Shown here one piece after another: positions 3,333 through 47,042 of a stretch of 64,000 nt of DNA. The DNA is from Candidatus Aenigmatarchaeota archaeon. GTDB taxonomy: Archaea; Aenigmatarchaeota; Aenigmatarchaeia; CG10238-14; SCSR01. The stretch covers positions 131,212 through 195,211 of the forward strand of contig JAUWZS010000002.1 in the NCBI GenBank assembly GCA_030615205.1. The letters run 5' to 3'. Position numbers and translations under genes: made by a program. Each line of letters opens with the position of its first letter. The stretch's first letter is position 1. A model generated the notes under the pieces. The model had not been told where the DNA came from and made no database searches. It saw only the letters and a program-made list of their open reading frames with translations.

Positions 3333-3357
3333 ATTTTTTTATGGGCTCAGGGAAAAG

Positions 3358-3477: not shown

Positions 3478-3491
3478 TTAATTCCTTAAGT

Positions 3492-4618: not shown

Positions 4619-4686
4619 TAAAACATAACATTTAATACATTATACAAAAGAAGATATAGTGAACGTTGCAAACTTAAGGGGCCCAA

Positions 4687-4805: not shown

Positions 4806-4904
4806 CTTTATACACATAAAAATTTAAGTTTCTTTACAGAGAGATTATTTACAGAAAGATCATTTAGAGAGAGGCTATTTACAAAAAGATAATCCAGTGG
4901 TATA

Positions 4905-6287: not shown

Positions 6288-6321
6288 ATCTATTTTAATT
6301 CTGTTTGCTAATTTTAGAGTA

Positions 6322-6585
6322 GTGAATATCTTGAAGAGTTTAAAGAAACTGACAAAGGCAGAAGGATTACAAATACATGAAGGTAAAAGGAGAAGTTTAG
6401 TTAAAGCAGTAACTTGGCGTGTGATAGCAACATTAACAACAATGGTTCTTGTTTTCATAGCCACAGGGGAACTGACTGTAACATTGGGCGTCGGTGTGCT
6501 GGATGTTGTCACAAAATTAATCTTCTATTTCGGCCATGAAAGAATGTGGAACCTGATCACTTGGGGAAAATATAAAAAGAATTAG
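6322..6585 (+). CDS. DUF2061-type small membrane protein
   Basis: KRRSLVKAVTWRVIATLTTMVLVFIATGE...FYFGHERMWN pattern. GTG start. Confidence 0.6.
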   Translation: MNILKSLKKLTKAEGLQIHEGKRRSLVKAVTWRVIATLTTMVLVFIATGELTVTLGVGVLDVVTKLIFYFGHERMWNLITWGKYKKN

Positions 6586-6598
6586 ATGGATTTAAAAT

Positions 6599-7054
6599 CT
6601 ATTTTTCGTCTTCTTTATCAAATTCTCTTACTAGTTCTAACAAGAGTTTATAAACTTCTTCAGGAGACTTGCCACTTCTTTGAACAAGAGATTTACCAAT
6701 TGTATCAAATATATGACCTGCGAATTCTTCTTTAGTTTTTATTTTTGAGGAATCTACCATACTTTCGCCTTTTTGTGTTAGTTCATAATATTTTCCTGAT
6801 GAAGGGATATAATCTCTCTCAATGCCATTTTTGTCAAAACCGCCAACAAGACCAAGCATCTGTAATTTTGTTAAATGATAGTGGATGCTCTTTCTAGATC
6901 GAAGGAAATGAGGTATAGGCTCTAATAGTTTGTGTTTGAGATTTTCAGGTAATCTATTTTCTATTTCATGCCCTTGAAGATAACCTTTTTCTTTTGATAA
7001 TATTCTTAATATCGAAAAATGTAGTCTAATGGTTTCTTTATCAAGATATTTCAT
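6599..7054 (-). CDS. winged-helix transcriptional regulator-like protein
   Basis: KSIHYHLTKLQMLGLVGG resembles an ArsR/wHTH recognition helix plus wing. ATG at 7054 avoids the overlap created by the TTG at 7099. Confidence 0.4.
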   Translation of the reverse strand: MKYLDKETIRLHFSILRILSKEKGYLQGHEIENRLPENLKHKLLEPIPHFLRSRKSIHYHLTKLQMLGLVGGFDKNGIERDYIPSSGKYYELTQKGESMVDSSKIKTKEEFAGHIFDTIGKSLVQRSGKSPEEVYKLLLELVREFDKEDEK

Positions 7055-7073
7055 TTTTTGACACCATTTTCTG

Positions 7074-7511
7074 TTACGATGGGCTCGCAACACCTTCAAC
7101 TTTATCTATAATCCAAGAAACTCTACGTTTGTCTCCGACTTTTAAGCCTAGTTTTTTATGGAGCTCCTTCAAGATTTCTTCTGAAGCCTTGCGCTCACAA
7201 TATGCTCTCCTTTTGTTACAGCCTGTAGGACCTAACTCACAAATATCATCTATACTGGCTACAACTTCTAAATGCGCTTCTCTATTTCCTAACAATTCAT
7301 CATAATATTTAATTAAAGAACTGATGAACTCTTTGCTATATTCTTTAGGCACACCCTCGATATTATGGAGATCTATTTCAAATTGCTCTACGTCGCCTAT
7401 ACTACCTATTACATAGGATTCTATACTTTTTCCATCCGAACGTCTAGCTGAAATTAAACAGCACAAGAGATTGAGATGATGTGGCCTCAGCCTGTAAATC
7501 TTGCTAGTCAT
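7074..7511 (-). CDS. DUF1284-like protein
   Basis: N-terminal YRLRPHHLNLLCCL and the later DDICELGPTGC resemble the DUF1284 pattern (RxHHLLC ... C..C). Weak call. Confidence 0.4.
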   Translation of the reverse strand: MTSKIYRLRPHHLNLLCCLISARRSDGKSIESYVIGSIGDVEQFEIDLHNIEGVPKEYSKEFISSLIKYYDELLGNREAHLEVVASIDDICELGPTGCNKRRAYCERKASEEILKELHKKLGLKVGDKRRVSWIIDKVEGVASPS

Positions 7512-7626
7512 AATCAAACACTAAAACTATAAAGTAACAGTAAAAATTTAAACCCATTCCTCTTGAAAACTCACAAATCAACCCAAAACAGATAGATTTA
7601 AAAGTTTAATCTCTGTTCTTATTCTC

Positions 7627-8034
7627 ATGAAAATGGCTAACTTAATAGAGCAACTGAAAGAAGTAGGCTATTATGCTTCGTATTTTATACCAGGGGTAGG
7701 CGTAATTAGAGCATACAAAGCTAGTCGACAAGTTTCGGAATTGACTGAAGGCATAATGTTGGATCAGATTCCTTATGATATTGGAAGTAAAGGTAGATTA
7801 GATTCTTTAACAACTCTAAGGAAATATGGTGGTGAAGTTGCTTTATCTACAGAAGCGCTTAGAGGTTATGGATTATTAACTTGGTACGTATTGAGATCTA
7901 TGCCAGAACCATTCAACTATATAGGAGACGCCATCGGTATATTAACCAATATACTTACACCCATTTCTCAGATATGGCTCAGTCGGAGATCGAGGGTGTA
8001 TGTGTCAAAAATAGAAAATAATAAAGCAGATTGA
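7627..8034 (+). CDS. hypothetical protein
   Basis: 135-aa ORF in a clean intergenic context. No motif recognised. Confidence 0.45.
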   Translation: MKMANLIEQLKEVGYYASYFIPGVGVIRAYKASRQVSELTEGIMLDQIPYDIGSKGRLDSLTTLRKYGGEVALSTEALRGYGLLTWYVLRSMPEPFNYIGDAIGILTNILTPISQIWLSRRSRVYVSKIENNKAD

Positions 8035-8085
8035 ATCATATAGATTTTTGTTCTTGGAAAATAAATATTATAACTGAGAAAGGTG

Positions 8086-8655
8086 ATGAAAATTAAATTA
8101 AGTTTTGTCGTGAGTGTGATAATAGTTGTTTTAATAGTTGGTACTGCAACACTCTTTCTATATCCAGCAGTTGGCCAAGGAACTTTAGTTCTGAAAATTA
8201 CAGATAAAGTTGATTTAACAAATGTAAGTTCTATTGACATTACCATAGATAAGGTCGAGGTGTATAAAGCTGTAATTGGTGAGATAGTAAACGAGACGAA
8301 CGAAACCATAGAAACGAATGAAACAACAACAGCAGGCTGGGAAACTGTGGTCAATGAGAGCAAGTCCTTTGATTTGATAGAAATAACTGGTGTTGAGGAA
8401 TTTCTTGGAGAGAAAACATTAACAGCTGGAAGGTATACTCAAATAAGATTAGAGATCAGTGATGCTAAGATAACTATTGAAGATATACAGCATGATTTGA
8501 AGATACCGAGTAAGAAAATCAAATTAATCCATCCCTTTACCATAGAAGCAAACAAGACAACAACATTGGTATTGGATTTTGACGCATCGGAATCTGTAGT
8601 GAAAGCTGGGCCACAATACATTCTAAAACCAGTTATCAAAATCATAGAGAAGTGA
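8086..8655 (+). CDS. DUF4382-like membrane-anchored protein
   Basis: N-terminal TM, then GTLVLKITDK...FDLIEITG...LTAGRYTQIRLEISDAKITIED...LKIPSKKIKL...TLVLDFDASESV, as in DUF4382 beta-sandwich proteins. Confidence 0.6.
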   Translation: MKIKLSFVVSVIIVVLIVGTATLFLYPAVGQGTLVLKITDKVDLTNVSSIDITIDKVEVYKAVIGEIVNETNETIETNETTTAGWETVVNESKSFDLIEITGVEEFLGEKTLTAGRYTQIRLEISDAKITIEDIQHDLKIPSKKIKLIHPFTIEANKTTTLVLDFDASESVVKAGPQYILKPVIKIIEK

Positions 8656-8795
8656 TTTTTTTATCTTTCAATCAACTCAAATCGGATAGATTTTTGTTCT
8701 GAGGAGAGCTTAAGCTTTAAACCATCTATGATAAAAATGAAAAGAAACATTAAGAAAAGTTAAAAGTAACAGAAATAAAATTTTTGAACTATAGT

Positions 8796-9548
8796 TTAAA
8801 AAGTGAGCCAGCCGCCGTCAACAAAGATTGTTTCGCCTGTTATATAATTGGATTCGTCCGATGCTAAGAAAGCAGCAACATTCGCTATTTCTTCTGGCTG
8901 TCCGAGCCTGCCGAGCGGAATGCGCGCAAGAATCTGTTTAAGATATTTCGGATCGTCTTCGAGTTGCTTTGTCATATCTGTCTGGATCGCGCCTGGGCCG
9001 ATAGAGGTAACGTTTATCCTGTGCGGTGCGAGCTCCAGTGCCATTTGTTTTGTCAGCTCTATGACGCCAGCCTTTGCAGCACAGTAATGTGGAAGGTTAT
9101 GAAATCCTATAAAGCCTGCGATCGATGATATGTTTATTATTTTTCCGCCATTGCCTTGCTTAATCATTTGTTTAGCAGCTGCCTGTGAGCATAGAAAAAC
9201 ACCTTTCAAATCAACATCCATCAGAGCATCCCACTGTTCCTCTTTCAAATCCAAAAAATTCGCATAGGTAATCGTGCCAGCATTATTCACAAATATATCC
9301 AAACTGCCAAATCCTTTCACAGCCGCATCAACAAGTTTTTTTGCAGTTTCAGCTTTGCTTACATCGCCTTCCACAGCAACAGCCTTTCCACCAGCTTTTA
9401 CAATCTCATCAACAACCTTTTGCGCGCTTTCTTTCTTCCTGCTATTCACAACAACAGCCGCGCCTTCTTTTGCAAGCTTGATTGCTATTGCTTTTCCGAT
9501 ACCGCGTGAGGAGCCTGTGACAACTGCAACCTTATCCTTTAGTCTCAT
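8796..9548 (-). CDS. short-chain dehydrogenase/reductase (FabG / glucose dehydrogenase-like)
   Basis: TGSSRGIGKAIA (TGxxxGxG), NNAG and the YCAAK catalytic YxxxK. The start is moved to MRLKDKVAVVTG at 9548. Confidence 0.85.
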   Translation of the reverse strand: MRLKDKVAVVTGSSRGIGKAIAIKLAKEGAAVVVNSRKKESAQKVVDEIVKAGGKAVAVEGDVSKAETAKKLVDAAVKGFGSLDIFVNNAGTITYANFLDLKEEQWDALMDVDLKGVFLCSQAAAKQMIKQGNGGKIINISSIAGFIGFHNLPHYCAAKAGVIELTKQMALELAPHRINVTSIGPGAIQTDMTKQLEDDPKYLKQILARIPLGRLGQPEEIANVAAFLASDESNYITGETIFVDGGWLTF

Positions 9549-19284: not shown

Positions 19285-20730
19285 TTACACTTCATGAGTG
19301 ATCCGTTTCTTCTTAGGCGACAGGATCTTGGTTTTCCACAGGACTAGTAGCACTGTCACTATTATGATTCCTACAATTATGTATATGTACGTCTCTGTTG
19401 TCAGCTCTGGTAATTCAAGTGGAACTGTTGTAGTAGTTGTAGTTGGTCCGATTGTCGTTGTAGTTGTAGCTGGAACTGTAGTTGTTGTAACCGCCCCAAC
19501 TATTTCTCCGCTTATTGCAAAGTAAGAAAAGCCTGGTGTAACTGCTTCGTAATATATATAATCGTCATCCTCGTCAATTTTAGTCGTGTTTAATTTATTC
19601 CATTTATCAGCAGCAAATCTGTTCAAAGCTATTGTAGCTGAGTCGATGTCATTATCGGTAATCCAAGGCTTCTCAACTTTAAATTTCATTGTCGCTGTTA
19701 AAATATCTTCATCCTCTATCTTTTCTTTTACAACGCTTATATAATGATATACCTTACCAGAGGCTTCTGCAATTTCAGTTGGTTTCGCATCAAGTTTTCT
19801 GATCGTTATATAAACTGAATTTACTTTATTTACAACCTGTATGTTTATTTCAGTAAAGTCCACTCCCTCTGTCTTTTCGATTGTCACCCTTGTTTTACTT
19901 GCTGCTGCTATTAATGGAATATATACCACAGCTTTGCCAGGCGTTGTTGATGCAACTGGGGAGGGCGGGCCCGGAGAATAAGGTTGCGTTGTAGTTGTAG
20001 TGGTTGTGGTAGGTGGAGATGTAATAGTTAACCAATAGGTTTGCGAATCACTGGTGAAATTTGCATCGCCCTCGAAAAAGCCAGTAATATTATACTTACC
20101 AGCTGTATATGAAAGAGTGATACTATTCTCTAGAGGCGAATTTCCAGAAGTGTTATAGGTAGAAGTGAAATTTGTAGATAAATTGACAAGCACTGTGTAC
20201 GATGTTTTTATATCAACAGTTATATTTGCCACTCGGTTTTGTGTGTATGATTTGTTTCCTTCAGTTCCATTCAGAAATAGACTTACATTGGTAGTAGAGT
20301 TCACAGCCAAAGTCCAGTTGTGCGTCTGCGAGCTATTCCATATATCGTCAGTATTGTTTGCATACCATGTAAAATTGTAACTCTCCGCACGGCCGAGCTG
20401 ATTCTGCGTGAAGTTAATCCACCACATTCCTGTTGTGTCGTTCTGAATTATAACACCCAACGTATTGTTAGTATAGTTAGTGTAAGTGTCAGTAGTTATT
20501 CTACCAAGCTGGAATGTAGTATTAGCGAAGACTATAACCTCAGTAGAATTGTAAATTCCTGACACATTGCTTATATTCATCTGGAATCCGTAGTTATTGT
20601 TCTGGTTGTACTCCGTGCCTGTCACATATGTAGAAGTGTTCGAATTGAACTGCGGAGTAGCGAATGCGGGTATCGGTACTATTGAAAACAAGAAAACCAA
20701 TCCCAAAATCAATAGTAAAATCTTTTTCAT
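19285..20730 (-). CDS. surface glycoprotein candidate with PGF-pre-PGF-like domain, Thr linkers and a C-terminal anchor
   Basis: Signal MKKILLLILGLVFLFSIVPIPAFA and many NxS/T sequons. VYHYISVVKEKIEDEDILTATMKFKVEKPWI...LNRFAADKWNKLNTTKI...YYEAVTPGFSYFAISGE. C-terminus TTTTVPLELPEL + TM + KTKILSPKKKR. Confidence 0.75.
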   Translation of the reverse strand: MKKILLLILGLVFLFSIVPIPAFATPQFNSNTSTYVTGTEYNQNNNYGFQMNISNVSGIYNSTEVIVFANTTFQLGRITTDTYTNYTNNTLGVIIQNDTTGMWWINFTQNQLGRAESYNFTWYANNTDDIWNSSQTHNWTLAVNSTTNVSLFLNGTEGNKSYTQNRVANITVDIKTSYTVLVNLSTNFTSTYNTSGNSPLENSITLSYTAGKYNITGFFEGDANFTSDSQTYWLTITSPPTTTTTTTTQPYSPGPPSPVASTTPGKAVVYIPLIAAASKTRVTIEKTEGVDFTEINIQVVNKVNSVYITIRKLDAKPTEIAEASGKVYHYISVVKEKIEDEDILTATMKFKVEKPWITDNDIDSATIALNRFAADKWNKLNTTKIDEDDDYIYYEAVTPGFSYFAISGEIVGAVTTTTVPATTTTTIGPTTTTTTVPLELPELTTETYIYIIVGIIIVTVLLVLWKTKILSPKKKRITHEV

Positions 20731-20752
20731 CAATTCACCTTTTCCCAATCTT

Positions 20753-20962
20753 TTATTTCCTCTTTCCTTTCTTTGTCCTGTAAACCTTGCTACGGCCAAT
20801 GCGGATGACTTTAACCTCACCCTCATGTCTCATCGCTTCTAAGTAACCACTAACAAAATCCCGTCTGAGCTTTAATCTTCTAGAAAGCTCGCTGAGAGAC
20901 ATGGGCTCCTTTTTAAGTGTAGAAATAATTCTACGTTTTATGTCTGTCGATGCATCGGACAT
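20753..20962 (-). CDS. small winged-helix DNA-binding protein
   Basis: MSDASTDIKRRIISTLKKEPMSLSELSRRLKLRRDFVSGYLEAMRHEGEVKVIRIGRSKVY. Start moved to the ATG at 20962. Confidence 0.55.
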   Translation of the reverse strand: MSDASTDIKRRIISTLKKEPMSLSELSRRLKLRRDFVSGYLEAMRHEGEVKVIRIGRSKVYRTKKGKRK

Positions 20963-21138
20963 TATATAGTATTTCGTATTGTACGCTATATAAAGCATTA
21001 TATCGTATTCCACAATTACCTGAAAGTGACACTGAGCATACTCGAAAACCGAGCAATTCGCATATTTTGCTCGGTTTTTTACAGAGAACATATAGACTGA
21101 CTAAAAATTATAAACAAAATGTGAAAATAGAGGTGAAA

Positions 21139-21624
21139 TTATTTTGAAGAAAGAATTTGCTCGACAAAACGGACGTCTATCCCGACTTTATATCCTTCGG
21201 GGTCTCTAATTTGCGTTAAAGGCACGTTGTACTCATTCCTAAGCTCTGCTATATACGCCCGAGCTCTAGATTGGGATATGTTCAGATTTTTTGCAATCTG
21301 CTTGTATGTATGAAAACCGTTATTTATCAGCATAGCTATTATTTCTCTGTGTCTGCCTCGTATACTGCTCAAGTTCGCGGATTTGAGCGGTCGCTCGAAA
21401 TGCTCTCTTTGCTCGCCAAACTGCTCGGTTTTTGCTCGAAAAGTACTGAGCTGCTCGGTCAGATTTAAATTCTTGCCTTTTTTATAAATTAATGCCCCGC
21501 TTACAATAACGCCTGTAAGGTATTCTATTTTCGAGTTTGTTTTCTCAAGTTTTTTTTCAAAAGAAGCAAGCGTTTTACTCAAAATTTCAATTTTCCTCTC
21601 AAGTGATTTGTTTCTTTTCATCAA
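21139..21624 (-). CDS. HTH DNA-binding protein with N-terminal coiled coil
   Basis: C-terminal HTH-like HTYKQIAKNLNISQSRARAYIAELR. Confidence 0.5.
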   Translation of the reverse strand: MMKRNKSLERKIEILSKTLASFEKKLEKTNSKIEYLTGVIVSGALIYKKGKNLNLTEQLSTFRAKTEQFGEQREHFERPLKSANLSSIRGRHREIIAMLINNGFHTYKQIAKNLNISQSRARAYIAELRNEYNVPLTQIRDPEGYKVGIDVRFVEQILSSK

Positions 21625-21694
21625 TAGTTATCTTGAAACCCGAGTATATAAGTTTAACTTAATAAATTGCCCAAAAGTACTAGAAAACGAGTGA

Positions 21695-24571
21695 TTAAAA
21701 ATTAATTATTCCTTTTTTGTAAAGTACGAATATAATAATCAAGGCTACAACTATTATTATTGCTATAATCTCCAATGCTCCAATTTCGAATGGCAGACCA
21801 GCTGGCAGTGTAGTTGTAGTTGTTGATGGCAGTTTTTCTCCTCCAATTGCAAACACAGACAAGCCTGTGGACTCTGCTTCATAATGTACATAATTCGCAT
21901 CACTGCTCACCTTGGTTGTTGTAAGGTTTTCCCATGCAGCATCTGAGTATCTGTACAAATAGACTTTGTCTTCATCTATGTCATTAGATATAATCCATGT
22001 TTTCTCGACTTTGAATTTTATAGTCGCTGTAGTTATATCATCGTCAGTAAATTCGCTTTTTTCAAGCTCGAGATATTTGTATACTGCGCCGACATCAGAC
22101 GCAATCGGTGCCGATGCTTCTGACGGCAACGAGCTTTCCTTTACAGTAACTGCTATATTGGCAAGTGCCTTGTTTGCCACAATCGCAACGCTTTCTATCC
22201 TTAACTCAGCTGTTTCAAATTCGAACTCGGCAGTTTCACCAGCAGCAACGATGTCTACAGTTGTAGTTTCCTCGGCCGGGATTGTTGTAGTAGTTGTAGT
22301 AGGAGCTGCAGTAGTGGTAGTTGTTGGTAAATAAATTGAGGGTGAAGTAGTTGTGGTTGTAGTTGTAGCCGCTGCTCTCGTATATACTATAGTAACTGAA
22401 TGTGTGCCCGAAGAGTCGAAGACGACTTCAAAACTGCCAGTGTTGTATCTATCACTACTGCAATTTCCATCTATACAAAAAGAAGTGATAGTTGCGTCTG
22501 TCGCATTGATATTCGGCACCTTATCGTATAGATCTATAGAACCAGCAGAAGGTGTTGAAATTGTTGCGTTATACCTACTAGTTCCAATGCTTCCTGAAGG
22601 CACTGTAGTCTCGCTCATAATACTGACATTTAATGAAGCTGTCATATTTAATGTGATATTGGATAACGAATTGTTTGGAGACCAACCATTAACTGCTGAA
22701 AGATTGAAATCAAATTGGTGGAAACACAGTGTTATATTATTTCCTATATTTGGCCCTGGGAGATTATCAGTCATGTTTGTACAATTGCTGAACGTATCAA
22801 CTATTCCAGCCTCGCTCCATGTTTCATTAGCAACCTTAACCCAATCATTACCAGTCTTATTATATAGGGTAAAATTAGAGCCCATAGTAGCTTGAAATAC
22901 TATATCCTCAGTACTGTTATAACCAGTAACATTTATTGGGTATAGGAAACGGACATACAGCTTCGAGTCTGTTATATTGAAATCTGTGAGGCTGTTGTTG
23001 ACGCTCACCACCATTTCTATGTTTGTTGCCGTCCCTGGCTGTGGCGGGCTTGCTTCCGGGCCTGGAATAAACCCTCCTGTTAATGTCTGGTTTGTTAAGA
23101 AAATTGGTGAGGAAAGTGAGGCGCCTGTTTGACCTTCAAATGAAGGTGGAGCCAGAGAGAATAAAGATGTTAATGTAGCAGATCCAGCACCAGCGGCTTC
23201 AACGGTGATTGGCAAATCGATTAGACCAACGCTAGACTGGCCATAATTGTAAAGTACTAATCTTGAACAATTTGCATTTAAGCTCGTACTATTGTCGTAA
23301 TAATAGCTACCTTCTTGGCCACTTGCGCTCTGATTATCATAAGGACCGCACACCGTGTTATTGTAAATATAATATATCGCAGCACCAGTCGGACTAAGAG
23401 ATGGTGATAAGATTGTCCTATTTATTGTTTCGCCCATGAAAATTTCTTCATGCGTAACATACCATGCTGGTATCAAGTTCGATTCATTTTTGAAATTTAT
23501 TGAATCGTATCTCGCTCCGTATGTTATGTTTGTTTTATCACCAGCGGTGCCATTAAATGTCAAGTTCACTGTAAGATTTAGCGCCAGCAACTCCATAACA
23601 TCTGGATTTTCAAAAACAGGCTTATCAAAATACATTGCATCGATAAACCCAGAGCTTGCAATATACGGCCTATTTGAAGTGACATTGAATTGCATTATCG
23701 GCACTATAGCATAATATTCCGATTTTCGAGCTCCCCATTTCAGTATACTTACGTTTGTCAAACAATCAGTTACACCATATTCGGTTTTAACTATTGGTTT
23801 TGAGTTTGGCATGCTTTCTCCAAGCAATATTCCATTGTCGATGTAATCAGTTAGGTTTACAGAAATCCACGTTCCATTTATCACTGAGCTTGATAACAAA
23901 TTGGTTGTTGCATTTACAGCGCTACAATTATATGGTACTTCTGTCGATGTGTTATATAAATTTCCAAAATTCCAATCATCACAGACATATACATAATCAG
24001 GAACAACGCCCCTTCTGGCATAAGTAAAGTTCGCACTTGTAGCACTCGAATTGGTTGTATCATAATCAATAGCAAAAGCGCTTACTATTCTGTAACCCCC
24101 GGTTGAATTTGCAAAATTATACTCCGTAGATGGGATCAGCTGAAAGTTTAATGTGGAATTGGGCTCTGTTACATTAAAGCCGCTTATTGTTACAGAGGAA
24201 TTATAGGTCTCATTAGCTCCAACCTTAATAACAGCATCGTTTATAATCAATTCAACAGTATAAGTACAATTACTTTGATTCAATTCAACAGTGAAATCTG
24301 CTCTTGGCGGGTATGAGAAGTTACTTGAATTCATAACTGCATCAAAACAATTTGCCTCGTTTGCAGTGAAAGTTAGGTTAGCTGCGAATTCTCCATATAG
24401 ACCGAATACAGGTGGCGTTGAAACATTACCAATATAAGTGGTTATATTAACGGATACGAATGTAACATTTCCTATTACGGTTGTGTTGGGCCAAGCAAAC
24501 ACCGATGTGGATGACAAAATTATTGAAAAAAATGTTAGGAATAGCATTAAAACCAAAAACTTTATATTCAT
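21695..24571 (-). CDS. large surface (S-layer-like) glycoprotein candidate with PGF-pre-PGF-like domain
   Basis: Signal peptide and dozens of NxS/T sequons. AVYKYLELEKSEFTDDDITTATIKFKVEKTWI...LYRYSDAAWENLTTTKV...YEAESTGLSVFAIGGE. C-terminus TTTTLPAGLPFE + TM + YKKG. Confidence 0.75.
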   Translation of the reverse strand: MNIKFLVLMLFLTFFSIILSSTSVFAWPNTTVIGNVTFVSVNITTYIGNVSTPPVFGLYGEFAANLTFTANEANCFDAVMNSSNFSYPPRADFTVELNQSNCTYTVELIINDAVIKVGANETYNSSVTISGFNVTEPNSTLNFQLIPSTEYNFANSTGGYRIVSAFAIDYDTTNSSATSANFTYARRGVVPDYVYVCDDWNFGNLYNTSTEVPYNCSAVNATTNLLSSSVINGTWISVNLTDYIDNGILLGESMPNSKPIVKTEYGVTDCLTNVSILKWGARKSEYYAIVPIMQFNVTSNRPYIASSGFIDAMYFDKPVFENPDVMELLALNLTVNLTFNGTAGDKTNITYGARYDSINFKNESNLIPAWYVTHEEIFMGETINRTILSPSLSPTGAAIYYIYNNTVCGPYDNQSASGQEGSYYYDNSTSLNANCSRLVLYNYGQSSVGLIDLPITVEAAGAGSATLTSLFSLAPPSFEGQTGASLSSPIFLTNQTLTGGFIPGPEASPPQPGTATNIEMVVSVNNSLTDFNITDSKLYVRFLYPINVTGYNSTEDIVFQATMGSNFTLYNKTGNDWVKVANETWSEAGIVDTFSNCTNMTDNLPGPNIGNNITLCFHQFDFNLSAVNGWSPNNSLSNITLNMTASLNVSIMSETTVPSGSIGTSRYNATISTPSAGSIDLYDKVPNINATDATITSFCIDGNCSSDRYNTGSFEVVFDSSGTHSVTIVYTRAAATTTTTTTSPSIYLPTTTTTAAPTTTTTTIPAEETTTVDIVAAGETAEFEFETAELRIESVAIVANKALANIAVTVKESSLPSEASAPIASDVGAVYKYLELEKSEFTDDDITTATIKFKVEKTWIISNDIDEDKVYLYRYSDAAWENLTTTKVSSDANYVHYEAESTGLSVFAIGGEKLPSTTTTTLPAGLPFEIGALEIIAIIIVVALIIIFVLYKKGIINF

Positions 24572-28989: not shown

Positions 28990-31692
28990 TCAATCTGGTG
29001 TAAATAAAGGAGGCGGACCTCCTCCCCCACCTCCTGGAGGAACAGTGGTAGTTGTAGTGGTTACCACTTCACAAGCATCTCCACATTTTGGGTCTGAATA
29101 ATACGGTGGTGAAGGACAAGTTACTCCCCATGTATCAGCCTGATCTGGATTTGGAACATACCAACAATTGTCACAAGCATCTCCTACACCATCTGCATCT
29201 GCGTCTGGTTGATAAGGTTCTCTAAATTGCACATTTGTTCGATAGTAGAACCAATCTGTTGGGCTCCTAATTCTTAAGTAAAACGGTTCTCCAGGATTTA
29301 TACCATAATCACCTAAGTCAATTTCATCAGATGTAATAATATTGCAATCTGAAGCAGAAGCTACAGTCCAGACTAATGTTCCTGCACCTCCACATTCTCC
29401 AGTTACAATATAATAATCCACTGGTCCTGTTATGAGATTACCAGGCTTGAATTGCAATCTCATCATATTAGAAGCTGGGCTTACAAAATCATACCAAAGG
29501 TCAAATGAATCTACTCCCCAACCACAGCTTGCACCACTATAACCATTAGCTCCTGTTCCACAACTCCAAGTTCCAGTAAACTTATGTCTGACATCTTCAT
29601 GATCAATAACTTCAGTAGTTGTATAAGTATATTCGACGTTTGCTATGTTAGGACAGTTATCTATATAATCTGGAACACCATCATTATCATCGTCATTAAG
29701 TGGATGATAATCTTTCCCATCACCATCTCCTGGAATTTCATAATAATTTGGAAGTCCTGGGTTACTTAACAAGTCAGACCAGTAATTACCAACATCGCTA
29801 AGATTCCAATTGTTGTTAGTCGATTTATCAGTTTCATAAGCATTCTCCTCATTATCTATGAAAGTGTTGTTCCAATAATTATTATAATCTGAATCACCGA
29901 GGGATGCTCCATAATTGTTATTTCCGATCAACTCATTGCTAGTGACGTCGTTGTAAGAGCTTTCAGCCAAATAAATTCCATCCCAACCATTGTAGTTTGC
30001 AGTATTACCAGTAAGGGCGTTGTTGTTAGAGTTGAAAGCCACAAAAAAGCCATTAGCACCATTGTAGTTTGCAGTATTAGCGATTAGATTGTTGTAAGAG
30101 CTCGTATATAAAAAAACGCCATCACCATCGTTATCGTTCGCAGTATTACCAGTTAGATTGTTGTAAGAGCTTTGATACAAAGCAATTCCATGATAAAACT
30201 CCTGTACATTGCAATTCTTAATAGTAACTCCATCCTTATTATCAAGATAAATTCCAATACCAAGACCGGTATTGTCTCCATCAATAAAACGACCAGCACA
30301 ATCAAGAGTTATATCACTAGCACCGATTATTAATCCATCCTCCGGGCAGTTTGTAAGGTTAGCAATCAATAGCGTATCATCTGTTATTGTTTCTCCGCAA
30401 CTGGCTACATAACCTTTATCTGCATAATAAATCATCTCTTCAACTCCGCACTCTCCATACCCAACAAAAAAATAACCATCATGGGGATCTGGTTCTTTTA
30501 GTGTTGTTCCATCCCAACCTATTCCCCAACTGTTTTTAGCAATCCAATACCCTTCGTACCATAAAAAGCCAGTATCCTTATAACCAGTAATAATCACATT
30601 ATGCCTGTTTAGTGAGACTGGGAAACACCTAAGAATATCTTCATCCCAGAAACTATCAACTTCATTCATAAATATACTAGTTACAAGAGGTCCCTTCTCA
30701 ATAAGATGTTGTTTAATGGTTTGTTGATTACTCGAAACAGGACCATAATCATCTATTTTTTCTAATCTACTTTCCCAATCCCCACACAATTCACAAGGAA
30801 CATTTGCTTGATAAGGTTTGTTAGGGAAGCAATCCTCATCAACTACTCCTTCATTCTTAATGTATTCAAAGACTATATTAGGAAATCCGCCAGTGCTACA
30901 AGAACCACAACCAGTACAACAATCATCTCCATTTGAAATTAATTGTTGCTCTGATAAGTCTAAATCAAGGTTAGGGTTATTCTTACGAATATTGTACATA
31001 GCTTCCACTACCCCAATAGAGGCAAATGCCCAGCAGGAACCACACATAGTACCTTGGTTCTTTACAGAAGTCATCCAATCTTCCCCATTTTTATCTCTCC
31101 AGTCAAATGAATCGGGTAAACTCATTGTTGAAACCCTTTCTTCTGGAGCAGTTGAGGTTTGTTCTATGGAAATGCTTCCTCTAGTAGCCTTTTTACTCAA
31201 ACCAAACAAATCTGTGACAGAACCAATTTCCTTTTTTTTACGAACACAAACAGCATAATGTCTTGAAAAAGGATTCTTACCATCAGTCTTTACTATCAAA
31301 TCATAGCCTTGTCTAGCACAATAAGAATATTCTTGTCCACATTTTCCTGTCAAGAATTGCCATTCTTCGCATTCGCTTTTATCAGGAAATATGCATATAC
31401 CTTTCTGTCCTCGGTCTGTATCAACTATTTTGTATTCATATCCCAGATCATGACAATATACAGCAGCAGGGTTAGCCATTCCATAAGAATCGATATTAAT
31501 GGAGCTTTCACAGATCTTTTTCTGTTGACCAGGGGCTCTCTCTAATCCTGATGGAGATGCTTGTGACGATGCTCCCCTTGATTTGATGCTTGGGTCTGCA
31601 CTGACCATAGAGTTAACGATAAAGACAGATAGACATATCAGCATTACCAGGAACAATATAACTATTTTTTTGTTGATATTCACACCCCCCAA
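28990..31692 (-). CDS. secreted multidomain papain-family (C1) cysteine protease: DUF333-like + C1 + beta-helix repeats + TSP3-like Ca-binding repeats
   Basis: Signal peptide. DUF333-like MANPAAVYCHDLGYEY...CEEWQFLTGKC. Catalytic CGSCWAFAS and AKNSWG. Repeated NNLTGNTANxNDGDG units (parallel beta-helix). DDDNDGVPDYIDNCPN and DADADGVGDACDNCWYVPNPDQAD. Tail TTTTTTVPPGGGGGGPPPLFTPD. Start is TTG 31692 or GTG 31683. Confidence 0.8.
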   Translation of the reverse strand: MGGVNINKKIVILFLVMLICLSVFIVNSMVSADPSIKSRGASSQASPSGLERAPGQQKKICESSINIDSYGMANPAAVYCHDLGYEYKIVDTDRGQKGICIFPDKSECEEWQFLTGKCGQEYSYCARQGYDLIVKTDGKNPFSRHYAVCVRKKKEIGSVTDLFGLSKKATRGSISIEQTSTAPEERVSTMSLPDSFDWRDKNGEDWMTSVKNQGTMCGSCWAFASIGVVEAMYNIRKNNPNLDLDLSEQQLISNGDDCCTGCGSCSTGGFPNIVFEYIKNEGVVDEDCFPNKPYQANVPCELCGDWESRLEKIDDYGPVSSNQQTIKQHLIEKGPLVTSIFMNEVDSFWDEDILRCFPVSLNRHNVIITGYKDTGFLWYEGYWIAKNSWGIGWDGTTLKEPDPHDGYFFVGYGECGVEEMIYYADKGYVASCGETITDDTLLIANLTNCPEDGLIIGASDITLDCAGRFIDGDNTGLGIGIYLDNKDGVTIKNCNVQEFYHGIALYQSSYNNLTGNTANDNDGDGVFLYTSSYNNLIANTANYNGANGFFVAFNSNNNALTGNTANYNGWDGIYLAESSYNDVTSNELIGNNNYGASLGDSDYNNYWNNTFIDNEENAYETDKSTNNNWNLSDVGNYWSDLLSNPGLPNYYEIPGDGDGKDYHPLNDDDNDGVPDYIDNCPNIANVEYTYTTTEVIDHEDVRHKFTGTWSCGTGANGYSGASCGWGVDSFDLWYDFVSPASNMMRLQFKPGNLITGPVDYYIVTGECGGAGTLVWTVASASDCNIITSDEIDLGDYGINPGEPFYLRIRSPTDWFYYRTNVQFREPYQPDADADGVGDACDNCWYVPNPDQADTWGVTCPSPPYYSDPKCGDACEVVTTTTTTVPPGGGGGGPPPLFTPD

Positions 31693-31805
31693 CCAAGATA
31701 CTTACAGAATTTAAGAAATAAATAGATATTACCCGAACCAAAAAAATATACTTTCTACTCTAAGATTGTAAAAAAATAAAAAAAATAAAAAATCAAAAAC
31801 ATTTT

Positions 31806-32141
31806 TTATTTTCCTAGTTCGTATACTGCTTTCAAAGCGACTATCACTGCAGCTGGAGCAACGAATGTTGCAATGTTTAGTAGTATCGGTCCTACATACG
31901 TTCCTATTAGTGGCAGGGCCCCTAAGCCTGCAGCACCTGTCAATAGCAACGCCATTGCTGCTATCAAGAAGTTGTACACTTCTTTTTCTGATATGTTCAA
32001 GAAACCGACGATTACTCCTAGGACCACTAAGAGCATAACAATTGTTTCAGCGTAAGCTGTCCCTAGTAATGGTAGCCCTGCTAATATCGCTATTATTACT
32101 CCAAGAATGAAAGACCAGTGTCCTATTTCTTCTAGTTTCAT
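31806..32141 (-). CDS. small polytopic membrane protein
   Basis: 111 aa with 3-4 hydrophobic helices rich in G/A/L/I/V. Confidence 0.55.
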   Translation of the reverse strand: MKLEEIGHWSFILGVIIAILAGLPLLGTAYAETIVMLLVVLGVIVGFLNISEKEVYNFLIAAMALLLTGAAGLGALPLIGTYVGPILLNIATFVAPAAVIVALKAVYELGK

Positions 32142-32365
32142 TTTTACACCTTATATTTCTTTAAGAAAGGCTGGCTTATAAACCTTCGTTAATCTTCGTT
32201 AAATTAAAAATCTTTTAAACTCAGTACTTTCGTAACAATAAATTTCTGGGACAGCTTTTCATTTTGATTAAATTTGATTATACTGATTTTCTGTTTTTGG
32301 TCAGACTTTTAATGTTATCGTTTTTTGATTGACACTTAAATAATTTTTGATTTAGGTTATAATTA

Positions 32366-32884
32366 GTGGGAAAAATGGGTAGTTTAAAAGATGCTGCTGC
32401 TAAGGTCATTGGTCGGATAAGTTCGAACAGGCTTACTCCTTATAATAAACTTACTCCTTATCTTTTCGATTCTGATATGAGTGCAGAAGATGTCCAAGGC
32501 CTCGCACCAGAAACAGGAAGTAATACTGCTTATGTTGCTGGCTCACCTTCAGGGCAAAATGCTAGTATTGGCAAAAGATATAAACTTGCCGGAATCATTC
32601 TAGGAGCTACTGATCTTCTTTGCGCGGGTATATATAAAATAGTTGTTGAACATGGTATGGATTTGTATTACAAGTTTGTTCCAGGCTCAGAAGCATATAA
32701 TGGACTACATCCCGCTCAGAAGTTACTTCGTCATCTTGTGTCTGCTGATGCTCCAAAACTTGGTCCTATTACACCAGTCTCAGCAGGTTGGATTGCTTTA
32801 ACCGCAGCATGGTTAGTAGGTTTAGGATTATATCTCCATGGCAGAGACAAGGAGGGGGAAAAAGAAATAAGGTCTTTCGAATGA
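32366..32884 (+). CDS. hypothetical protein with C-terminal TM, translationally coupled to the S8 protease
   Basis: The stop overlaps the protease ATG (ATGA at 32881-32884). Hydrophobic AGWIALTAAWLVGLGLYL near the C-terminus. Start is GTG 32366 or ATG 32375. Confidence 0.5.
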   Translation: MGKMGSLKDAAAKVIGRISSNRLTPYNKLTPYLFDSDMSAEDVQGLAPETGSNTAYVAGSPSGQNASIGKRYKLAGIILGATDLLCAGIYKIVVEHGMDLYYKFVPGSEAYNGLHPAQKLLRHLVSADAPKLGPITPVSAGWIALTAAWLVGLGLYLHGRDKEGEKEIRSFE

Positions 32885-35529
32885 TTCCAAAATATCTTCA
32901 AAAAAATTCAGGGAAGTTTTTATTACTTTTTTCTATATTTTTTTTGCTAATAACACCAAATCTTGCAAACGCAATTTATTCTCAGTATTCCCAGATTCCA
33001 ACCAAAGTCTTTGAACTTGACAAAACCATTCCACAGGAAAACGTGACGATGAAAGGAATCGTCGTGGTTTCTCCTACTCGTCCAAATAAACCAAAGTTAT
33101 TAAAGAAAGGGGAAATAAAGAACGACAAAAAACTCTCAAATATTGTGAGAAAATATGATGGAAACATAGCGTTTACATCAAAATATGGTCATTCCTATAT
33201 AGATGTACCTGAAGAAAATTATGAAGCAATCATAACTAAGCTAAGGGCCGTGGGGTATAAAGTAAGAGACGAATTGATATTACAACCTATGCTCGACGAA
33301 TCATTGGTTGTCATAAGTGCACCTTATACTTGGTACAGCAGCGGCCAAGAATTAACTCTCACTGGAAATAACAGGGTCATTGCAATACTTGATACAGGAA
33401 TAGATGATACCCACAGCGATCTTCAAGGCAAGGTCCTTGCATGGAGAGATTCAATCGAAATCGTCGATAATGAAAATTATGGAAGTATTACTCCTTACGA
33501 TGACAACGGACATGGAACCTTTGTAAGTTCTATAGCTGTTGGAACTGGTGAAGCATCAAGCGGTCAATACACAGGAGTTGCACCCGGTGCAAACCTTTTG
33601 GTGGCCAGAGTCTGTGGACCAGTATACAACTGGGGATACTTACGGTGGGAATGTAGAGAACGCTATCTGGAAGATGCGTTGCAATGGATAATCGATCTCT
33701 TTGATTCCGGAGCATACCAAGCGGATGTGATAAGCATGAGCCTTGGGGCATCGAACCCAGAACCAAATAAATGCACGGACATGAACTCTGGTATGAATGA
33801 ATTGATCTCAGATGCCATTTCAAGAGGCATTCCTGTAGTTGCAGCTGCTGGAAACGATGGTCCTGCAAATGATATAAAGGTAGGTGGGATATTTGAAGGG
33901 GCTATAACTTGGCCAGCTTGCGTACAAGATGTGATTGCTGTAGGCGCAACGTACAAAAAGGCCTACCAAGGTTACAGTTTTGGTTTGGATATCCAAGAGC
34001 GTTTGTTAGTAAGTACTAAAGTCCATGTCAAAATTGATTGGGTTGATCCTGATGGTATAGCTCGCTCTGATGAGTATGAATGGGAAGCTTTCAATGCATC
34101 ATGGTCGGGCTTATATGAAAAGTCAGGTTTCGACAAAGTAATTAATCCTGGTCCATATACTGAAGACGTTTGGGTTAGTTATGAAGTGATGGAAAGAGTT
34201 ATAGGTTGTCACCTATTATTTGGTTGTCCACATATCGACGAAATATGGTATCCATCAGGAAGTGAAGAAAAGGGAGTGGCTTATTTTGGGAGACAATGTT
34301 ATGTGCCTTTTGGGTATGATAATCAAATGGTAGTTCAATTCTCAGCATGGCCGATGGTTGAAGAGATACCGGGCATACTAGGATGGACATATTATCATAC
34401 CTACTTTCCTCGTTATGAACCAGAGCCAGGCATACATGGCGAACCCAAAGGAATAAATATTAACTGTTATAAGAACATTCATGACTGGGAACTTATGACA
34501 GATTTCATTCCCTTCTGGAGTAGCAGAGGTCCTCCTCCTCAAGGTGGAATAATGAAACCTGATGTTGTCGCACCTGGTTATCATATATGTGCAGCTCATG
34601 CAGAAAATACAGAAATAGGAGAAGATATTTGCGGCAATGATCAATATACAGCTGCTATGGGAACTTCTGCTTCAACACCTTTTGTTTCTGGATTGATCGC
34701 ATTACTAAAAGAGGCAAAGCCAAATGCGGACATCAACTTGGTCAAAGATTCCATATTCAATACAGCAGATGATGTTTGCGGGGTTAATGGTTATGATGGT
34801 TATTGGAATGACAAATATTCTTGTGCAGGAGAAGGTCATGGCAGAATAAATGTACAGAAGGCCGTGGATTATATAACAGACTGCAGCCTTAAAGATGGCT
34901 GGAATTGTAACAGGAATAGTAGAGAATACTGGGATTATTATTATGATAGTGAATCTGGATCTTGTACATATTCTATAACTGCAAATGAAGATTGTAGAGT
35001 CGATGCATCTGATTCTGATGGAGGTCTAGCATACAAAACAAGAGGAACATGCACGGATTACACAGGCTGCTTAAATGGAAATTGTCAAAGCAGTAGTTAT
35101 ACAGATGTTTGTGCCAAGGACGCTACTCCAGACTGTAGAGATGAACCATTCAACTGTCCCTCTGGAAATTGTAAGACTCTGGGTTTTGATTCTGGAAAAT
35201 GTTTTCATGATGTCAGTTGTAACCCACCATATTTACCAGTCTGTGAAGTAGACTGTGTCGCAACTTATGGCTCTGGTTGGAGTTGTGCCTGGGACCCTTG
35301 GTATGGATGCTACTGTAAAAAACAAGCCAGTATAACAGCAGGCCATGAAAACTATGTAAAAGAATATTATGTTTCTGGAACGGGCGATTCAACCACTTGT
35401 AGCTATACTTATAAGAACTGTAAGGATTATGGGACATATTGGACTTGTTCTGATGGAAGATGTGTGTATACTAGTAGTGATGGCGGTGGGGGTGGAGGTG
35501 GTGGACCTCCTAGATTTACTGTGAAATAA
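32881..35529 (+). CDS. secreted subtilisin-family (S8) serine protease with Cys-rich C-terminal region
   Basis: Signal MIPKYLQKNSGKFLLLFSIFFLLITPNLANA. Catalytic triad in AILDTGIDDTH, DDNGHGTFVSS and GTSASTPFVSGL. Many Cys in the last 230 aa. Tail SSDGGGGGGGGPPRFTVK. Confidence 0.85.
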   Translation: MIPKYLQKNSGKFLLLFSIFFLLITPNLANAIYSQYSQIPTKVFELDKTIPQENVTMKGIVVVSPTRPNKPKLLKKGEIKNDKKLSNIVRKYDGNIAFTSKYGHSYIDVPEENYEAIITKLRAVGYKVRDELILQPMLDESLVVISAPYTWYSSGQELTLTGNNRVIAILDTGIDDTHSDLQGKVLAWRDSIEIVDNENYGSITPYDDNGHGTFVSSIAVGTGEASSGQYTGVAPGANLLVARVCGPVYNWGYLRWECRERYLEDALQWIIDLFDSGAYQADVISMSLGASNPEPNKCTDMNSGMNELISDAISRGIPVVAAAGNDGPANDIKVGGIFEGAITWPACVQDVIAVGATYKKAYQGYSFGLDIQERLLVSTKVHVKIDWVDPDGIARSDEYEWEAFNASWSGLYEKSGFDKVINPGPYTEDVWVSYEVMERVIGCHLLFGCPHIDEIWYPSGSEEKGVAYFGRQCYVPFGYDNQMVVQFSAWPMVEEIPGILGWTYYHTYFPRYEPEPGIHGEPKGININCYKNIHDWELMTDFIPFWSSRGPPPQGGIMKPDVVAPGYHICAAHAENTEIGEDICGNDQYTAAMGTSASTPFVSGLIALLKEAKPNADINLVKDSIFNTADDVCGVNGYDGYWNDKYSCAGEGHGRINVQKAVDYITDCSLKDGWNCNRNSREYWDYYYDSESGSCTYSITANEDCRVDASDSDGGLAYKTRGTCTDYTGCLNGNCQSSSYTDVCAKDATPDCRDEPFNCPSGNCKTLGFDSGKCFHDVSCNPPYLPVCEVDCVATYGSGWSCAWDPWYGCYCKKQASITAGHENYVKEYYVSGTGDSTTCSYTYKNCKDYGTYWTCSDGRCVYTSSDGGGGGGGGPPRFTVK

Positions 35530-45537: not shown

Positions 45538-46152
45538 ATGTCTCATGATGAAGAAAATAAGATCAAAGCAGTTATCTTCGATATTGGAGGTGTTTATTTA
45601 AAAGGTAGTAGAAAGGACATATACTCTAGTTTATCGGAACAATCCGAAGTAGACTTTGAATTCATCAAAAGCCAACTCAATAAATTTTACACTGAGTTAG
45701 AAGATACTGATTTCTTCTGGAGAAAAATCGCAGACATATTGAAACAGAAAGATTATGGAAAAGTCAGAAAAATATGGTTGGAAGCAGTAGAAAAGAAATT
45801 TGTAGTTAATAAAAAAGTAAAAGAAATTATAGAAAATCTTAAAAAATCAAATTATAAAATTGCAGCTTTAACCGACACAAACATAGTTCACTCAACTTTT
45901 ATTAAAAAAATGGGGTATTATAAACCTTTTGATGTTGTAATTTTATCTTCTGAAGTTGGAGTAAAAAAACCTGATATCAAAATATATAAGATTGTAACTG
46001 AAAAATTACTCTTGAAGCCAAAAGAATGCATCTACATCGATGACAATAAACGTAATTTAATTCCAGCAAAAAAACTAGGTATGAAAACAATTTTGTTCAA
46101 AAATGCAAAGCAGCTTGAAAACGAATTGAATAAACTTGGAATATTGAATTAA
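45538..46152 (+). CDS. HAD-superfamily hydrolase (paralogue of 38613..39233)
   Basis: VIFDIGGVYL, LTDTN and IYIDDNKRNLIPAKKLGM. ATG at 45538. Confidence 0.8.
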   Translation: MSHDEENKIKAVIFDIGGVYLKGSRKDIYSSLSEQSEVDFEFIKSQLNKFYTELEDTDFFWRKIADILKQKDYGKVRKIWLEAVEKKFVVNKKVKEIIENLKKSNYKIAALTDTNIVHSTFIKKMGYYKPFDVVILSSEVGVKKPDIKIYKIVTEKLLLKPKECIYIDDNKRNLIPAKKLGMKTILFKNAKQLENELNKLGILN

Positions 46153-46187
46153 ACGAAATTGTCTAACCTATTTTCACCAACCTATTT

Positions 46188-47042
46188 TTACCAACCGCCT
46201 CCAGCGCCTCCGCCTCCCGATCCGCCTCCACCAAATCCACCACCACCGAATCCGCCGCCTCCGCCACCGCGACCTCTTCCTCCGCCGGCAAGGAATATAA
46301 AGAAAGGATAACATCTCCTTCTTTTCTTCTTTACACATTTTTTATATCCGCATTTTTTGCAGATATGACAAATCATGTTGCCCTTGCGCTCCACACGCAT
46401 CCATGAATGGCATTTTGGGCATATGTGATTTTTAACAGAGATTATTATAGGAGGTAATATAAAAATAGCCAACATGAATAGAAGCAAGTAGCTATAATCG
46501 AACCATAGCTCATCTAACCCATCAGGCTCAAACTCGCCACTCAAAGTTTCGTTGCCTGCGATTATATCAGCAAGCGTTTTCACAGTAAGGTAAAGCCCTT
46601 CGCCATATTTTTCATCCTGGAAATAACTAGTCATATATGCTCGTCCGATGCGGCCTGCTTTTGCATCGTTTATATCTCCCTCCAGGCCATAACCAACTTC
46701 TATTTTCCATCGCCTGTCGCTGATTGCAGCAACTATAAGTATGCCGTTGTCTATTCCTTTTTGCCCGATGCCATTCTTCTCAAACACCTTTACAGCATAT
46801 TCTTCTATCGGCATTGGCTGCGTACTGTTCACTATAAGCACTGCTATCTCAGCTGTGGTTGCTGATTCGAGCTGCGCGGCGTAATTGTTTATCATACTTT
46901 CATACGAGGAATTGATTACGTTCGCAAAATCGCTCACATATGGTACAATAGTTGGTATGTCCTGTGCATGCACTTGTGCGGAAAAAAATAGTAAAGAAAA
47001 TAAAAAAGTAAAGATTAGTGTGGCAAATATTGTTTTTTTCAT
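46188..47042 (-). CDS. TPM-domain protein (YgcG-like) with zinc-ribbon insert and Gly-rich tail
   Basis: Signal peptide. TPM core VSDFANVINS...AEIAVLIVNS...DNGILIVAAISDRRWKIEVGYGLEG. TM, then CPKCHSW...CHICKKCGYKKC. Tail GGGRGRGGGGGGFGGGGFGGGGSGGGGAGGGW. Adjacent to lemA. Confidence 0.75.
   Translation of the reverse strand: MKKTIFATLIFTFLFSLLFFSAQVHAQDIPTIVPYVSDFANVINSSYESMINNYAAQLESATTAEIAVLIVNSTQPMPIEEYAVKVFEKNGIGQKGIDNGILIVAAISDRRWKIEVGYGLEGDINDAKAGRIGRAYMTSYFQDEKYGEGLYLTVKTLADIIAGNETLSGEFEPDGLDELWFDYSYLLLFMLAIFILPPIIISVKNHICPKCHSWMRVERKGNMICHICKKCGYKKCVKKKRRRCYPFFIFLAGGGRGRGGGGGGFGGGGFGGGGSGGGGAGGGW

Follow-up and report, generated by a model that had tools for sequence, protein, structure and literature searches.

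An oligo-glycine-hinged C-terminal tail shared by two unrelated secreted proteases of an aenigmatarchaeal locus

The window analysed here is a stretch of 64,000 nucleotides (nt) from the genome of a Candidatus Aenigmatarchaeota archaeon (contig JAUWZS010000002.1 of assembly GCA_030615205.1), in which a secreted papain-family (C1) protease and a secreted subtilase (S8) are encoded on opposite strands, on either side of two genes for small membrane proteins. Both proteases end in an oligo-Gly run followed by a short tail of the type Pro-Pro-x-Phe-Thr, and this likeness is real and non-random. The exact tail is private to the locus, and it seems to be one version of an end-piece that is loosely conserved among secreted enzymes of archaea, rather than a genome-wide sorting signal. 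The genes and tail-coding regions, numbered by position in the window, are the following.

28990..31692, minus strand: secreted papain-family (C1) protease of 900 amino acids (aa) (open reading frame (ORF), Pfam, NCBIfam)
28993..29034, minus strand: region coding for the C1 tail, GGGGGG-PPPLFTPD, 14 codons, followed by TGA at 28990-28992 (DNA read directly)
31806..32141, minus strand: polytopic membrane protein of 111 aa, encoded immediately ahead of the C1 gene in the same orientation (ORF, hydropathy)
32366..32884, plus strand: protein of 172 aa, soluble in its N-terminal part, which has two hydrophobic segments and ends in basic residues (ORF, hydropathy)
32881..35529, plus strand: secreted subtilase (S8) of 882 aa (ORF, Pfam, AlphaFold2 (AF2) model)
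35482..35526, plus strand: region coding for the S8 tail, GGGGGGGG-PPRFTVK, 15 codons, followed by TAA at 35527-35529 (DNA read directly)

Both proteases begin with a hydrophobic N-terminus resembling a signal peptide and are built from several modules. In the C1 protease, the signal peptide is followed by DUF333, Peptidase_C1 (E 3e-38), a parallel beta-helix (NosD-like), TSP3, a Cys-containing end domain, a Thr linker, the Gly run and the tail, with DUF333, the beta-helix and TSP3 also matched in Pfam. The S8 protease consists of a signal peptide, an N-terminal region, an S8 domain with a large insert (Peptidase_S8, E 8e-42 in Pfam), Cys-rich C-terminal domains, the Gly run and the tail. Its AF2 model, calculated from an alignment of 38 sequences, has a mean predicted local distance difference test score (pLDDT) of 77.6 and shows residues 4-37 as a helix, while residues 867-882, which include the tail, have a pLDDT below 50 and no secondary structure. 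Outside the tail, no similarity between the two proteins was detected by BLASTP, in keeping with the initial annotation of this DNA, which had argued that the tail was not inherited together with the catalytic domains.

The tails were reproduced both from the ORFs and by direct reading of the DNA, exactly as first annotated. The C1 protein ends in GGGGGGPPPLFTPD (longer stretch ...VVTTTTTTVPPGGGGGGPPPLFTPD, then the stop) and the S8 protein in GGGGGGGGPPRFTVK (longer stretch ...YTSSDGGGGGGGGPPRFTVK, then the stop). Only 7-8 residues lie past the Gly run, and no membrane helix follows the tail in either protease, as had also been proposed. Past the last Gly codon, a stop is reached within 18 codons in all three frames of both genes, no frame is hydrophobic, and the distance to the next gene is ~130-240 nt in both cases, so that the tail is not a frameshift artefact masking a longer domain. 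A hidden continuation by frameshift or read-through is ruled out on the same grounds. When a random 8-residue end is compared with the pattern PP.{1,2}FT..$, the chance of a match at a protein end is ~1e-5; the six-frame ORF set of this genome (1.17 Mb in 36 contigs, 88.5% complete) contains 1,990 ORFs with a length of 100 aa or more, and two of them match. A run of five or more Gly (G5+) followed by PP..FT at an ORF end is found in just these two proteases, and none of the other 1,990 has a G5+ run in its last 10 residues. One further ORF of the genome, of 295 aa, ends in Gly runs (GGGGGGFGGGGFGGGGSGGGGAGGGW), and a G6 run lies inside a 57-aa ORF.

Occurrence of the motif in further proteins, on which the initial annotation had made its proposal depend, was not observed: the strict form (G5+, PP, x, F-T, x-x) is confined to the two proteases, with no third copy among the six-frame ORFs of the genome and, at the DNA level (G5-PP-x0-2-FT), no match in 60 relatives beyond the two own sites. 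A looser DNA pattern, G5-[PRTS]-P-[PRTS]-[LF] with one mismatch allowed, was searched over 371 genomes of the phylum and retrieved the same two sites and one additional C-terminal case (in genome G068), the other matches being internal linkers, an RGG helicase tail and non-coding frames. A word search with the last 48 residues against 5.8 billion proteins returned the query itself as sole match. The S8 C-terminal region as a whole has no match in 40 relatives, which indicates that the locus is accessory. Scans with G6-[PRTS]-P-[PRTS]-[LF] over all species genomes were swamped by noise from high-GC genomes and by the alanyl-tRNA synthetase motif GGGGGGRPTLAQAGG, and can serve as a baseline only; they contained no long-ORF match ending within 5 residues of the motif. 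A metagenome scan with AT-rich codons yielded one true case among 25. The conserved C-terminal motif GGGGGGRPTLAQAGGK of alanyl-tRNA synthetase, which dominates scans for Gly6-Arg-Pro (L022-L101), is a trap for searches of this kind.

Looser tails hinged on a Gly run are present at the extreme C-terminus of other archaeal secreted hydrolases. Judged by sequence, they appear to share a general form: oligo-Gly and 0-4 further residues lead to R/P-P-P/L or, in its place, a small Cys loop, and the protein ends after another 2-3 hydrophobic residues. Those found on relatives of the S8 protease (compared at 33-48% identity), on C1 relatives and on unrelated carriers are given below.

S8 relative P0003: ends G7-WRPPLLR
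S8 relative P0005: ends G9-RKK
S8 relative P0012: ends G6-NLRRPRFL
S8 relative P0015, from a Heimdallarchaeaceae metagenome-assembled genome by its NCBI name: ends G6-NLRPLMLR
S8 relative P0014: ends GGGGSGSCGVRPLCVVAL
S8 relative P0271: ends ..GGGCQSRLYGPPVPC
S8 relative P0272: ends G6-CGSGGSSVIINGPPLLC (..INGPPLLC)
S8 relative P0273: ends ..CCGGGPLIVKI
S8 protease of G068: ends G4-CGNCLMM
C1 relative P0145: ends G6-SPLGRPLLR
C1 relative P0131: ends G4-ICWECMFHMPLTW
Unrelated carrier, Cys-rich protein of G068 with a signal peptide, 129 aa: ends CGGGGGGGGGRPPLMT, i.e. G9-RPPLMT, then the stop
Unrelated carrier, lipase-like alpha/beta hydrolase with TSP3 repeats, 584 aa: ends G7-RPPLD, then the stop
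Unrelated carrier, zincin-motif (HExxH) protein with TSP3 repeats, 425 aa: ends G6-CGGRCFLMAW, then the stop

The two C1 relatives are archaeal-type members among 150 representatives of the C1 family. One of them, P0131, has in common with the C1 protease of the window the domain preceding the tail (..DTWG.TCP.PPY..PKCGDACE). The 275 S8 and C1 homologues contain 17 G5+ runs, of which 8 are no more than 17 residues away from the C-terminus, against ~2% expected by random placement, although this is not a clean statistic because the carriers are partly related to each other. Since Gly runs double as inter-domain linkers, the run is best regarded as a hinge rather than as a signal in itself, and the informative part is what comes after it.

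In homologues, the position past the Gly run is occupied by one of several modules: a Hint domain, a membrane helix with a basic anchor, a tail containing Cys, or a short tail. Two Hint domains, each of ~110 aa, follow the oligo-Gly run directly (G/CL[VI]EG..K[IV]LTP...NDLLIHN) and are themselves followed by an end peptide of 6-9 residues with no nucleophile at +1. The first is in a 1,414-aa S8 protease of G080 (..CSAGRCRYIGGGGGGG/CLVEGTKILT...NDLLIHN/MFMKMPLMV, then the stop, with slashes at the domain borders; L185, G080:C12:8500-13800, minus-strand ORF 712..4953), the C-terminal region of which is near-identical to that of P0009, and the second is in an unrelated 423-aa secreted protein of G066 (..GGGGG/CLIEGFKVLT...LLIHN/APIAKQ, then the stop; L184, G066:C1:55700-61000, minus-strand ORF 3644..4912). 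The matches to Intein_splicing and Hint_2 are below the Pfam gathering thresholds (E 1e-5 and 3e-5; range 1e-5 to 1e-3), with Cys1 and the terminal His-Asn present. In sequence, these two proteins look like cases of Hedgehog-type or bacterial intein-like (BIL) C-terminal autoprocessing of archaeal exoproteins. As the Cys1 of the Hint domain adjoins the Gly run, a cut would be predicted exactly at the end of the run (Gly/Cys), which suggests that this position is a C-terminal processing site. Unlike these homologues of the same phylum, the two proteases of the window lack a Hint domain, and no Cys past the Gly run was found in them (sequence, Pfam).

Helix-bearing anchors placed behind a Gly run, x, Arg, x and a hydrophobic residue were found in P0173 (G10-QPRMMAWDVQ..helix..RSRMR), P0181 (GGG-CGRWC..), L177 (G080:C4; G6-CSRCYMMNV..) and an 800-aa glycosidase-like protein of G068 (L012 5429..7831, minus strand, G068:C10; G5-CGRGCYLIAIGPY..helix..RRKK). 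The form of these anchors, i.e. oligo-Gly, C-x-R-x-C (or QPR), hydrophobic residues, spacer, membrane helix and Arg/Lys cluster, resembles the MYXO/CGP-CTERM type (L012, L177, P0181, P0173); no NCBIfam model was matched in scans that covered only few of these proteins.

The two genes between the proteases were pointed out in the initial annotation, and the overlap of the stop of the 172-aa ORF with the S8 start (ATGA) is indeed present. The 111-aa membrane protein has no family match in Pfam. Both small membrane proteins are more readily accounted for by a conserved cassette, in which a small membrane protein precedes an S8 or DUF333-C1 protease. A protein of 150-207 aa without Pfam match precedes the S8 gene in the archaeal contigs L014, L015, L016, L017 and L019/L020, often overlapping its start, and in three of these contexts a gene for RNA 3'-phosphate cyclase lies downstream of S8 on the opposite strand. 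Most of these small proteins have one or two predicted hydrophobic segments, with none reaching the hydropathy threshold in L016 and in the 157-aa protein of L017. Some are linked by BLAST, the 172-aa protein matching the 157-aa protein of L017 weakly (E 0.007). Comparisons between subgroups by hhalign were not significant, so that only a positional and topological likeness is claimed. The cassette also exists where the tails are absent (as in P0002), and the small proteins can therefore not be claimed as tail-specific partners.

Cassettes of this kind appear to be sites of module exchange. In L017, three pairs stand in a row, namely a 190-aa protein with a C1-dockerin protease, a 157-aa protein with an S8 protease and a 202-aa protein with a C1-CARDB protease, and the neighbouring S8 (5001..8930) and C1 (9750..13055) genes have in common a 418-aa C-terminal region (CARDB and a Cys-rich end) at 70% identity. 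This indicates that adjacent S8 and C1 genes of the cassette exchange C-terminal modules. At the locus of the window, local alignment of the DNA of the two tails scores 18, compared to 8.5 +/- 1.6 for shuffled sequences, and most synonymous sites agree. The tail of P0131 differs from that of the C1 protease of the window despite the conserved preceding domain, whereas the two non-homologous neighbours match each other, and thus the likeness of the tails runs within the genome and not along the gene tree.

The classical C-terminal sorting signals of prokaryotes are all tripartite, with a signature motif, a transmembrane helix and a cluster of Arg and Lys (Haft 2023, bioRxiv 10.1101/2023.06.07.544157). 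This class includes the PGF-CTERM/archaeosortase, PEP-CTERM, LPXTG and GlyGly-CTERM systems and the Cys-containing MYXO-, CGP-, JDVT- and Synerg-CTERM signals. Like these, the tails are C-terminal, borne by proteins with signal peptides and portable between families; tripartite signals often follow a Thr/Ser-rich or flexible linker, and relatives of the proteases bear tripartite-like signals behind a Gly run (GGGGG-CGRGC...helix...RRKK). Unlike them, the tails have no helix and no basic cluster (the ends being ...RFTVK and ...LFTPD), and there are two carriers in the genome. One archaeosortase-like gene is present elsewhere in the genome (PF09721, 35.2 bits, C29:61883-62320), and it is probably explained by helix-bearing PGF/PEF-like proteins at 19285..24571, a system separate from the tails, which agrees with the distinction drawn in the initial annotation. 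Two surface proteins are encoded there, at 19285..20826 and 21695..24571 (both on the minus strand), and each combines a PGF-pre-PGF-like region and a Thr linker with LPAGLPFEIG or VPLELPEL, a membrane helix and a basic end. The C1 tail comes after a Thr linker too, as in the proteins at 19-25 kb, but a truncated PGF-like signal was rejected as its origin, given that no helix remnant is left and that the S8 tail has no Thr linker.

The closest parallel is the YLP-box/ultrashort_CTERM of NCBIfam (NF050076, NF053834), a putative sorting motif of 10-11 residues with which secreted multidomain proteins end, DUF333-C1 proteases among them. It has no membrane helix, and its Pro stands ahead of hydrophobic residues and one basic residue (e.g. 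HRIYLPLVLRE). The archaeal tails are likewise ultrashort, helix-less, extreme C-terminal ends of secreted proteins, but they lack Tyr-Leu and have an oligo-Gly run ahead. Eight archaeal Gly-hinged tails gave no match to the two models (cut-offs 15 and 10 bits) at E <= 10, whereas a control tail, ..HRIYLPLVLRE, scored 18.3 and 15.2 bits; since a second YLP-like control (..YQIYLPTVLRSAP) went unmatched, the scan misses some true members. No paper describing the YLP-box or the present motif was found in the literature searched. YLP-box ends ([IV][YF]LP-hydrophobic-x-[RK]) are frequent among bacterial C1 homologues, occurring on ~13 of 150 DUF333-C1 representatives (e.g. P0205, P0217, P0221, P0229, P0233, P0239, P0241, P0246, P0255, P0260), whereas Gly-hinged tails are sparse. 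The tails are also unlike the Por_Secre_tail of the type IX secretion system (T9SS), a folded beta-sandwich of ~80-100 aa: they are 14-15 residues long and disordered in AF2, and no Pfam or NCBIfam match to that domain was found.

A further parallel is offered by the pseudo-substrates of subtilases. The S4-S1 pockets of subtilisins are occupied by propeptide or pseudo-substrate segments, and suc-AAPF-pNA is a common subtilisin substrate. By analogy, P-P-R-F, P-P-L-F, R-P-P-L and R-P-L-M look like good P4-P1 sequences, and a flexible tether would allow them access to the active site. In contrast, the known inhibitory segments of subtilases are propeptides at the N-terminus (I9) rather than C-terminal tails of 7 residues, no docking of the tail is seen in AF2, and proteins other than proteases bear such tails too. 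Docking within the same molecule accordingly has no support from AF2; the disorder seen in the model may still be compatible with binding in trans, or with transient, substrate-like binding.

Taken together, we tentatively favour a reading in which the Gly run would act as a flexible hinge, and the 7-8 residues past it (PP-R-F-TVK and PPP-L-F-TPD) as a short peptide tethered at the extreme C-terminus, in a position used for C-terminal processing or surface retention, the shared variant having arisen by local exchange or co-adaptation. Because homologues use the position past the Gly run for C-terminal handling modules, we infer that the tail is functional and recognised after export, where it would either be clipped off or keep the enzyme at the cell surface. 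Clipping would most likely be carried out by the subtilase itself, in view of the resemblance of P-P-x-Phe and P-P-Leu to P4-P1 substrates of subtilisin such as AAPF, or else by another surface protease; alternatively, the tail might be bound in trans. It would not be a membrane-embedded sorting signal. That two unrelated proteases carry the same variant would follow from their common gene cassette, within which adjacent S8 and C1 genes would exchange or co-adapt their C-terminal modules.

Several points weigh against this proposal. The residues past the Gly run differ widely among carriers (AAGASSA, RKK, FR, Cys loops), and neutral leftovers would look much the same; joining domains is also an ordinary use of Gly runs in this phylum. 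With two carriers in the genome, and very few C-terminal ones in the 371 genomes of the phylum, the case for dedicated machinery is weak. No processing enzyme or receptor for the tail was found, profiling against tail presence not having been made. Docking of the S8 tail in cis is not predicted, and its cleavage by S8 is suggested by analogy with the general specificity of subtilisins. Homology between the subgroups of small proteins is unproven, and such proteins also precede proteases without Gly-hinged tails.

A possible but more doubtful alternative is that the tail is a neutral leftover. A Gly linker would once have preceded a larger module, such as an anchor or a Hint domain; upon its loss, the ORF would have run on to the next stop, and ~40 nt would have passed from one neighbouring gene to the other through gene conversion or recombination, without any function being involved. 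This would account for a Hint domain or membrane anchor at exactly this position in homologues, the heterogeneity of the ends, the restriction of the strict motif to one accessory locus that is not found in 40 relatives, the disorder of the tail in AF2, and the likeness of the tail DNA in both genes, synonymous sites included, for which the exchange of modules between S8 and C1 neighbours in L017 provides a documented precedent. It accounts less well for the R/P-P-P/L-hydrophobic core, which is shared by 8 or more tails belonging to four unrelated families and to different archaeal lineages and would not be yielded by random read-through, nor for the conservation of G6-NLR(R)P..L between P0012 and P0015, which are just 46% identical. 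The peptide past the Hint domain of the G080 protease (MFMKMPLMV) moreover resembles the tail of the Hint-less P0131 (MFHMPLTW), suggesting that the terminal peptide itself is kept.

A dedicated helix-less tag, read by an enzyme or receptor that would anchor or sort exoproteins in a manner analogous to the YLP-box, comes closest to the sorting or processing signal of the initial annotation, and we consider it unlikely. The tails do occur at the extreme C-terminus of proteins with signal peptides and, in looser forms, on unrelated secreted hydrolases; NCBIfam curates ultrashort helix-less C-terminal motifs of putative function that end many Chloroflexi-type C1 homologues, and helix-bearing anchors show the same signature of Gly run, Arg and hydrophobic residue ahead of the helix. 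However, sorting signals that act genome-wide normally come with many substrates in a genome and with an enzyme dedicated to them, and such a role is not supported here: the strict tail has two substrates, carriers number one to three per genome with none in most genomes of the phylum, and no candidate or co-occurring enzyme was found (again, profiling against tail presence was not made). The YLP-box models are matched by a positive control and not by the tail, and the archaeosortase homologue is probably already accounted for by the proteins at 19-25 kb. Far less plausible still is a role of the nucleic acid itself, with GGN repeats followed by CCN forming a GGAGG/CCUCC hairpin or a G-quadruplex beside a T-rich mRNA 3' end, as a terminator or stabiliser of which the peptide would be a by-product. 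A simple terminator scan flagged the C1 tail (a 10-pair stem, then TTATTTAC), and the tail region of L161 contains an inverted repeat of 8-10 bp (z = -2.0). Yet the two tails of the locus fold no better than shuffled sequences (z = -0.04 and -0.32), that of G068 folds worse (z = +2.02), and the terminator-like scan barely exceeds background (9 found vs 4.0 +/- 1.9 expected). Conservation is seen at the peptide level across different codons, and tails such as NLRPLMLR, RKK and the Cys loops have no Pro-Pro and hence no C-run to pair with the Gly run. Based on the folding scores of the four tail regions (-0.04, -0.32, +2.02 and -2.00) and on the many tails without Pro-Pro, the hairpin or terminator was rejected.

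It is tempting to extend the favoured reading, processing or retention of a Gly-hinged peptide, to an undescribed class of oligo-Gly-hinged C-terminal handling modules on archaeal exo-enzymes. All occupants of the position past the Gly run, i.e. ultrashort R-P-P-hydrophobic peptides, Cys-loop peptides, membrane-helix anchors and Hedgehog-like Hint domains, would then be interchangeable and feed into a single pathway, by which a mature protein ending in Gly would be left at the cell surface and perhaps be covalently attached there. In this archaeal counterpart of Hedgehog or sortase chemistry, the PP-x-F-T tails would be the minimal form. Such a single pathway is distinctly unlikely. DPANN archaea live attached to hosts and rely on surface and secreted hydrolases, and to our knowledge it is largely unknown how these wall-less organisms retain or mature them. 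If functional, the Gly-hinged tails would represent a second class of helix-less ultrashort C-terminal tags beside the YLP-box, and would connect such tags to Hint autoprocessing and membrane-helix anchors in the same position. If they are neutral leftovers, they are a warning that identical low-complexity ends on neighbouring genes can stem from module exchange within a protease cassette.

Gly-rich ends of another type were also encountered. The 295-aa ORF ending in GGGGGGFGGGGFGGGGSGGGGAGGGW lies in the window at ~46091..46268 on the minus strand (C26:177302-177479 of this genome), and proteins of ~600 aa in G090, G091 and G105 end similarly (GGGFSGGGG..G8FR, ..G10YGAG). We take all of these to be ordinary ends of membrane proteins of the TPM/DUF2207 type, unrelated to the protease tails.

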